A stretch of 63,245 bases of DNA, the filler included, from Thraustochytrium aureum (taxonomy: Eukaryota), in the NCBI GenBank assembly GCA_012862495.1. It is 6 parts of 4 records of this genome, joined end to end, with 100 filler letters (N's around TTAATTAATTAA, not from the genome) between each part and the next. Parts side by side here need not be neighbours in the genome. Positions count along the whole stretch, not along the records: positions 21,418 to 26,053 come from BLSG01000167.1; 5 more parts are not named here. One strand, written 5' to 3'. Below, piece by piece: positions 21,418 to 23,272 of the stretch. The notes under the pieces were generated by a model. That model saw only the letters and a list, made by a program, of their open reading frames with translations, was not told where the DNA came from and searched no databases. The position numbers and the translations under genes are program-made. How positions within the stretch are numbered: position 1 is the stretch's first letter; each line of letters starts with the position of its first letter.

Positions 21418-23272
21418 CATCGCAGTGCTGGACGACCAGCCCGATCTCTTTTACAGGCAGGCCAACGTGTTGGAGTTCAGCGACACGTTCAATCCGATGA
21501 TCGAGAGCAAGCGCGTGGTGCTCATGGCTGTCTCCGTCGCAAACCACAACATGGATGCGCGCACGTTCAGCACTGAAACGCCTAGTTTTGGACTTGCCAA
21601 GCGTGGCTTCTTCTATCAGCGAATCTATGTGGATGAGTCTGGTGTCGAGCACTACTGCCTCCCAGAGTGGTATGCCTACATACGCCTCGTCTGCAGCGCG
21701 GCGGTCTTCAGGGAGTACTTTGCTGCCATGGGGGCGAGCTCCATCACATCGACCAAGTCAGAGAGCGGGTCCAAAAGCGTCGAGTCCGAAATGGAAACCC
21801 AGGTGGACGTTGAAGGCGCCGTCAGCTTGGGGGGCTCCAAGTCAGCCTCCCGTTCACGCGGAACCGACGACAGCAATGTCTTTACCGCGGAATACTCGCG
21901 CCCCCTCGGCCCACCTCATGTGCCGGAAGATCTCGATCTCTTTTTCATCCGAGAGTTCGACTCGGCCCTCAAGAACAAGGGCTTCCTATCCAGGACGATG
22001 AAGGACTTTATTGACGCTGAACACCCGACGCTGAGTCAATTGCGACTCGTCATGTCGCACCACGACACCAGCGAGAGGGCCAAATCGCTCAGCCTCCAAG
22101 TCGCGAGCAAAATCGGCGCTGGCATGAGCAACAAGAAGAGCGTAAAAGCCTCCAAAGTTGTCAACCTGACGCAGGAAATACACGTCACGTTCCACCCCGA
22201 GGAGGCATTTAAGAGCTTCATTCAGGCCAGTGTCACTGTCAACGTCCTCAGTGATCATATCCCTGACATTTTCACCTCCACCAAGCTCACACTGGAGACC
22301 CGCGACCCGCTGACCTACAAGGGCAACATCGGCGAACTCAGCATCCTGGTCGTCGGGGACGTTGGTTCCGGCAAGAGCTCGCTCATACGGAGCCTTCTAC
22401 ATGCCCAGTCGGGCGTGATGGGGGAGCCCACGGAGATGCCGGTGGGGATGCTCATCCGAACCGATGAGCACAAGGAAGGGACGCGGTATGTTCAACAGTA
22501 CGACCTGCTCCGCACGCCGTTCAACGTCCGTGGCGGTCGAGGCGTCTCGGTTGGGTGCATCTCCCTCAGCGACACTGAAGGGATGGGCATTGAGACAAAA
22601 GACTTGCTGCGAATGTCAGACAAGGAAGTCGCGCGGCGCAGCCACAAGTGGACGAAGGCCGAATTCGAAGGAAGTGGGGCCATCCCAATGCCCAAGGTCG
22701 TCCCCAACGCAACGTGGCTCGTTTTTGACGGTCACGAACTCGTCAAGTCATTGTACGACGACGTTGTCGAAGGCGCATTGGTACAGTTTGAACAGCGTCT
22801 GCGGGCGTACGCGGTGTTCCTGGAGCGTTTCCGTGGGGAGCACATCCCCGCTCACCCGCTCGTCGTTGTCTTCACCAAACGCGACTGCATCGAGCGCGAC
22901 TTCCCGCACAAGGCGAACGAGTATCTGGATAAACTGTTTACGTTCACATTCGACACGTTCGACGCTGTCGCCCGTGGCGCCCTATCCAAGATTTTTTCTG
23001 TCGCCAACTACGTGCCCCATGAAATCGAACCTGGCACTTCGCGCACCAAGATGGGCGCTGCCGTCGACCTCCAAGGGCGGCTGGCTACTTCGAAAAGAGC
23101 CCGTACAGACTGGGAGAAACGTTGCGATGGGTGGCAAGCTCAGAACGACGCCCTCCTTCGCGTGGTGAGCGCAACGGTCGAACAAGTCCGCGCCAGGGCC
23201 CAGGATGAGATGAACTCGAGCAGCATCACCAACGACAACTATGCAACGATCGACCAGTGCATTTTTCAGTGA
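21418..23272 (+). CDS. Fusion of an uncharacterised beta-rich (putative pore-forming-like) domain and an IFI44-like P-loop GTPase; 5' partial
   Basis: G1 GDVGSGKS, G2 EGT, G3 LSDTEG, G4 VVFTKRD, then IFSVANY; N-terminal Y.LPEWY...FAAMGASSI followed by S/T/K/G-rich strands. Confidence 0.75.

Follow-up and report, generated by a model that had tools for sequence, protein, structure and literature searches.

Proteolysis is the main means by which the known gasdermins are activated. The fingers of the bacterial members consist, according to the available text of PMC10153256, of four strands of 17 to 18 amino acids (aa) with loops of 8 to 11 aa and are made by helix refolding. IFI44, an antiviral-response GTPase, is described as a negative regulator of these responses (available text of PMC6712396), and because of this its name gives no clear functional lead for the protein considered here. 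This protein, P0001, is encoded on a scaffold of 4.6 kb (21418-26053) within a window of 63,245 nucleotides (nt) from Thraustochytrium aureum (GCA_012862495.1), in which six scaffolds are joined by artificial linkers (N44-TTAATTAATTAA-N44). It is a soluble, single-chain protein with a real, undescribed two-domain architecture, an N-terminal domain (N-domain) of 260 residues being followed by a P-loop GTPase. A preliminary description of the window had proposed a pore-forming-like domain fused to an IFI44-like GTPase on a virus-like scaffold, acting in host defense or carried by a virus. The scaffold has three long open reading frames (ORFs), and the coordinates of all features are listed in Table 1.

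The reading frame is real, as the plus strand stays open over 617 codons. The start of P0001 is missing because the frame begins at base 2 of the scaffold, directly after the linker, and related contigs in public sequencing runs extend 141 to 146 nt further upstream than the scaffold edge. Copies with about 92% identity are present in four public runs (X1, X3, X4, and X5), with 213 differences in 2883 letters in X3 and X5, and no indels inside the P0001 ORF are among the listed differences. Synonymous changes were counted in the 40 listed of 296 differences from these copies, with every site classed alone; 20 of the 21 differences in the N-domain are synonymous, as are 8 of the 19 in the C-terminal part. 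Since the listed differences in the N-domain are mostly synonymous, the gene is real and under purifying selection, and the N-domain is, judged from codon changes, the more constrained part of P0001 within this sample of 40 differences. A single-sequence AlphaFold model of the full ORF had a mean per-residue confidence (pLDDT) of 32.9 and was not used.

The GTPase with all of its G1 to G4 motifs and the V.NY motif was recovered as first described. GDVGSGKS is located at residues 313 to 320, a G2-type EGT at 353 to 355, DTEG at 385 to 388, TKRD at 486 to 489, and VANY at 528 to 531, and P0001 thus shows the full set of TRAFAC P-loop features (G1 GxxxxGK[ST], G2 Thr, G3 DxxG, and G4 [NT]KxD). 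G1 is present in six of seven homologs; the three complete homologs keep both G1 and G3, with G4 reading TKHD, THLD, and TRLD. No Pfam family passes its threshold on P0001, the P-loop models included, and the nearest solved structures of the G domain are weak matches to Rabl3 (E = 3.9e-4) and the Roc domain of LRRK2 (E = 0.0014 to 0.0016). As a lead, the homolog P0014 lies near MMR_HSR1, AIG1, and septin G-domain clusters in the ESM Atlas (0.85). The ORF ends in CIFQ, which is absent from the preliminary description and which we take to be a CaaX-type prenylation box. Ends of this type occur in two of the four complete C termini of the family.

A phmmer search of 1.84 billion representative sequences returned seven matches at E ≤ 0.001, and a profile search added P0014. 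P0010 was dropped as a family member, as it matches at the P loop only, and P0011, P0012, and P0013 were dropped as cluster siblings. The N-domain, whole or in part, and the P loop are found on one chain in five of the seven relatives (P0010 left out), so that the two-domain architecture with a P-loop GTPase recurs in distant relatives, most of which are about 22 to 25% identical to P0001. The single-domain relatives are P0008, which ends after the N-domain, and P0004, which has the GTPase only; both are on contigs of 1.1 to 1.2 kb. An N-domain profile built from six homologs without P0001 recovers P0001 at 99.7 bits and has no other match in the window. All seven relatives are named "hypothetical protein" at most. 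No relative was found by word-based homolog searches with the full P0001 ORF and with aa 1 to 275, by a scan of prokaryote genomes with P0001, or by tblastn against plasmids; PHROGs gave just two weak matches, and the family profile matched in none of 401 genomes of one bacterial phylum, a scan run without a positive control. In addition, P0007 (L001:10001-11222) ends shortly after G1 and is missing 9 of the hairpin 2 residues seen in P0014; this copy may be broken or may naturally lack the GTPase.

The case for a pore-forming N-domain rests on two inserts. AMGASSI is located at residues 103 to 109, and the two segments that had been pointed out as S/T/K/G-rich, at residues 118 to 144 and 223 to 258, lie in regions in which these residues make up fractions of 0.51 (residues 106 to 158) and 0.37 (205 to 258), versus 0.27 in the whole protein. 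Their suggested amphipathic character needs qualification. Segment 1 alternates in P0001 (P = 0.002) but in none of five homologs taken singly (none below 0.05), whereas segment 2 alternates in two of seven sequences (P = 0.012 and 0.028) but not in P0001 (P = 0.18). At the family level, 20 of the 21 windows above the 95% level fall within the two segments, but the global test gives borderline values (P = 0.06 for the maximum and P = 0.17 for the count). The column-averaged hydrophobic alternation peaks at 124 to 140, 221 to 240, and 247 to 259, most strongly in hairpin 2 at 221 to 240. In an AlphaFold model of the N-domain from seven sequences (pLDDT, 64.9; predicted template-modeling score, 0.59), which was read for its order of elements only, a small N-terminal subdomain is followed by a hairpin, a helix (82 to 103), a strand, an insert, a strand, two helices, a strand, a helix, and a strand. 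Of the four predicted strands, the first two enclose a disordered insert and the last two one that contains a helix, an order that, in our view, resembles the gasdermin N-domain. The model order is also compatible with the four-stranded core and two helical clusters of MACPF proteins, at the pLDDT given above and with no PDB row. The inserts with their flanking strands (52 to 59 and 43 to 60 aa) are of lengths that fit the strands and loops of bacterial gasdermin fingers as given in the available text of PMC10153256.

Searches of the ESM Atlas point in the same direction. With aa 1 to 275, the best clusters are unnamed (0.93 to 0.94), and the nearest named ones are gasdermin (PF04598) and Bact_GSDM at 0.88, a lead only; the ten best named matches are all common to one family or clan. 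An unnamed cluster of 382 aa ranks first for P0001 by features (0.94) and for P0014 by structure (template-modeling [TM] scores, 0.34/0.51). P0014 also retrieves a MACPF_1 plus Ras/Roc/Arf cluster by structure (TM scores, 0.35/0.41, under the bar) and a MACPF_SNTX plus G-domain cluster by features (0.78).

Several results weigh against a pore former. The fold search that had been proposed for this domain was run with Foldseek and VIA-align and lists no gasdermin, MACPF, or aerolysin structure, an absence that, with a model of moderate pLDDT, leaves the fold possible; the best structural rows are common α/β arrangements such as that of uS3. The gasdermin profile PF04598 matches none of the seven alignment members at E ≤ 10. 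The MACPF signature, (Y/W)G(T/S)H(F/Y)x6GG, is found in none of eight sequences, and a Pfam MACPF match is found in none of seven. Bacterial gasdermins were also considered as a profile source and set aside, as PF04598 is weak in 2 of the 401 genomes, under the cut-off in both and in long unrelated proteins. These negative fold and profile searches, the missing signature, and the lack of alternation in segment 1 of all five homologs taken singly would be expected if the N-domain were of an ordinary α/β type, with low-complexity loops, that binds partners or serves as a scaffold, and if the protein were a lineage-specific, membrane-anchored signaling or immunity GTPase. We consider this rather unlikely, since all members have two inserts of nearly constant length between their core strands, the alternation peaks lie within them, and the feature and structure rows of two members lead to gasdermin and MACPF clusters. 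With circumstantial support from the model, the Atlas, and the alternation peaks, and with a fold search that lists no pore former, a pore function of the N-domain is plausible, if unproven. Should the N-domain be no pore former, the protist GTPases of this small family would still carry a conserved domain that is without annotation.

The explanation that we put forward, with some hesitation, is that P0001 is a protist GTP-gated, membrane-anchored pore or cell death effector, for which we infer a fold class, an anchoring, a gating, and a defense role. The N-domain would form a gasdermin/MACPF-style β-barrel pore, with the GTPase as its built-in lock and trigger. Prenylation of the CIFQ box would hold P0001 at the membrane, where the G domain would cover or restrain the two inserts of the N-domain. 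Once an intruder is sensed, GTP binding, nucleotide exchange, or self-association of the G domain would release the inserts, which would then refold into two hairpins, and protomers would assemble side by side into a β-barrel pore that may kill the cell or rupture the intruder-containing compartment. The pore could also be released by proteolysis within the linker of about 45 aa (aa 260 to 305), with the GTPase as an inhibitory lid, a targeting module, or a sensor. Proteolysis is the canonical activation route of gasdermins in the available texts, the linker is poorly conserved in the family, and both P0007 and P0008 end before a full G domain. However, G1, G3, and G4 are retained in each of the four sequences whose G domain is complete, which would be needless for a mere lid, and none of the three ORFs on the scaffold matches a protease. 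We regard release by proteolysis as improbable.

The description of the scaffold as virus-like was only partly borne out, since it has one sub-threshold triplex-like ORF on its 4.6 kb, whereas the rest of the window consists of ordinary eukaryote scaffolds. This ORF, P0002, is the sole virus-like gene of the scaffold, lies at its end, and may, from its sequence match, be a mirusvirus triplex gene; it has no PDB match, and viral-contig scans with P0002 and six family proteins found no relative. The convergent neighbor P0003 is interrupted by a gap of 270 N, which is bridged by 65 letters in four runs, placing the ATG at 24700 in frame. After bridging, P0003 has about 400 aa, with Cys clusters near its start, and has no Pfam, PHROG, or PDB match. 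P0003 is conserved at about 92% together with P0001 in the relatives, with small indels in the X1 contig. In X1, X3, X4, and X5, the match of this block ends at 24715 or earlier, and the X1 contig runs for 423 further letters without an alignment. In these runs, the matches to the triplex-like gene are confined to short pieces located on other contigs (the longest listed has 158 nt with 22 differences), including a diverged 158-nt match to P0002 on separate contigs in X3 to X5. Because the relatives' contigs stop matching at 24715, the P0001-P0003 pair is kept there without an adjoining triplex-like gene. The spacer between P0003 and P0002 is possibly a host/virus junction at the edge of a mirusvirus-like insertion.

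P0001 might itself be part of an episomal or integrated mirusvirus-like element, with a role in viral egress, lysis, or superinfection exclusion. PMC12606086, PMC10827195, and 10.64898/2026.07.28.741200 report both episomes and integrants of mirusviruses from protist assemblies, and the mirusvirus main texts that were checked for the term do not contain the word "GTPase." A viral origin would agree with the triplex-like ORF that lies 1.6 kb away on this scaffold, the compactness of the three ORFs and their lack of introns, a TTAGGG doublet, one top Atlas cluster with Nucleocytoviricota as its commonest phylum, and a GC content at third codon positions (GC3) of P0001 (0.74) that is below that of most housekeeping genes of the window (0.76 to 0.94). 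On the other hand, P0001 agrees in codon use with the host WD40 ORFs (GC3, 0.71 to 0.74) and not with the triplex-like ORF (0.83); the 92% block lacks a triplex-like gene beside it; and the homolog P0007 lies in a cellular neighborhood, among TLDc, FAST, DEAH helicase, and UFC1 genes on the intron-poor contig L001. We therefore see only a small chance that P0001 is part of such an element. Since the 92% relatives keep P0001 without the triplex-like neighbor and P0007 is located among housekeeping-type genes, as the suggested neighborhood check revealed, a host gene is more likely, and most simply P0001 belongs to the host and lies next to a gene of viral descent, although a second viral element is possible. 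Viral carriage is accordingly weakened, and host defense is the better of the two roles that had been suggested.

Table 1. Features of the P0001 scaffold and its left border
Feature	Position	Strand	Remarks
Artificial scaffold linker N44-TTAATTAATTAA-N44	21318..21417	.	Truncates the P0001 gene; leftward sequence unrelated
P0001, 5'-truncated ORF, 617 aa visible	21419..23272	+	N-domain, linker, P-loop GTPase, helical tail, CIFQ end
N-domain, aa 1-260	21419..22198	+	Candidate pore former of gasdermin/MACPF-like type; unmatched in Pfam, NCBIfam, and PADLOC
Candidate insertion hairpin 1, aa 106-158	21734..21892	+	Strands 106-117 and 154-158 around a disordered stretch (118-151); length 52-59 aa across six sequences
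Candidate insertion hairpin 2, aa 207-258	22037..22192	+	Strand 207-215, helix 219-232, strand 248-258; 43-60 aa in seven sequences
TRAFAC-type P-loop GTPase	22328..23011	+	G1 22355-22378, G2 22475-22483, G3 22571-22582, G4 22874-22885, VANY 23000-23011
C-terminal CIFQ	23258..23269	+	CaaX-type box; P0006 ends CCIQ; P0009 and P0014 have none
P0003, convergent neighbor	23284..24700	-	No family match; start probably ATG 24700, in frame across the 270-N gap
AT-rich spacer	24716..24915	.	TTAGGGTTAGGG at 24856; similarity to relatives ends at 24715
P0002, 359 aa, herpesvirus/mirusvirus triplex-like ORF	24916..25995	-	Pfam VG27 (ictalurid herpesvirus), E = 0.0019, 18.1 bits, cut-off 27

The other scaffolds of the window carry ordinary eukaryote genes, encoding carboxyl transferase, P450, formin FH2, Myb, SF1-KH, TIR, and WD40 proteins, and a family match was obtained for 10 of the 15 proteins scanned, including 7 of the 9 from the window. 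On a scaffold separate from that of P0001, positions 15858-18987 (minus strand) encode a TIR domain, then a Walker-A-like motif (GPAGCGKS), and then, across a gap, a long WD40 repeat, which probably make up a single NLR-like gene of the TIR-NTPase-WD40 type. The ORFs 26156-27925 and 28931-29779 (both minus strand) have a lower GC content and no Pfam match at 1e-5, and the former resembles, to our eye, Crinkler/RHS-type NTPase-nuclease proteins. The ORF at 58695-59435 (plus strand), presumably APS-kinase-like, has its best prokaryotic matches in Phycisphaerae (60 to 67% identity) in a collection of prokaryotes only, without eukaryotes. A highly regular WD40-like repeat array occupies 62197-63243 (plus strand) on a 1-kb scaffold and is presumably of the kind present in NLR-like sensors.

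In the literature on gasdermin or MACPF together with GTPase, protist, stramenopile, AIG1, or mirusvirus, no such fusion was found by title or the start of the abstract, with subscription journals and supplements outside this scope. A pore domain wired to a GTPase would, if true, be a new activation logic, and gasdermin-type cell death would extend to protists, for which little antiviral immunity has been described. A broader proposal, which we hold to be doubtful, is that protists have single-chain, GTP-gated, prenylated gasdermin-like pore formers, with gasdermin-like executioner and GBP (guanylate-binding protein)-like membrane GTPase on one chain, which are switched on by nucleotide state rather than a protease and directed against persistent giant-virus infection.

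Compared with known GTPases, P0001 presumably shares its TRAFAC G domain, DTxG, and VxNY-like G5 with IFI44/IFI44L, AIG1/GIMAP, septin-like proteins, and GBPs, and its CIFQ end with the C-terminal CaaX that we believe some GBPs have. The "IFI44-like" label of its G domain stands for a supposed resemblance. The IFI44 family has an N-terminal TLDc domain, and P0001 differs from IFI44 in that no TLDc (TLD) domain was found in it with a model that gives E = 1e-33 on an unrelated ORF of L001. Like the gasdermins (GSDMA-E/PJVK, PF04598; the bacterial bGSDM, available text of PMC10153256; and fungal RCD-1), P0001 is intracellular and has an N-terminal domain of about 260 aa, two predicted insertion segments of suitable length, one of them partly helical, a potentially inhibitory C-terminal domain, and a possible lipid anchor. 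It gave no sequence or fold match to gasdermins in these searches, its C-terminal domain is a complete GTPase where theirs is a helical inhibitor or a short peptide, and its candidate lipid site is the C-terminal CaaX where theirs is an N-terminal or finger cysteine. Pyroptolysins, or cytolysin-like bGSDMs, are a precedent for a gasdermin-fold domain with a foreign C-terminal domain and without a neighboring protease (available texts of 10.64898/2026.10.05.756811 and PMC10153256); they are bacterial, have an Ig-like sterol-binding domain, and target other cells, and the word "GTPase" is absent from the available text of this preprint and of PMC11249213. The unnamed MACPF-GTPase clusters of the Atlas (MACPF_1 plus Ras/Roc/Arf, 513 aa, 83 members; MACPF_SNTX plus MMR_HSR1, 1165 aa, 131 members) differ from the P0001 family, which has no MACPF Pfam match or signature, and their scores are under the bars of the tool. 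They are neighbors of P0014 and combine a domain of a pore-former class with a G domain in one chain, as the P0001 family would if its N-domain is a pore former, and because such clusters exist, the pairing of a pore domain with a G domain is not unique to the P0001 family.
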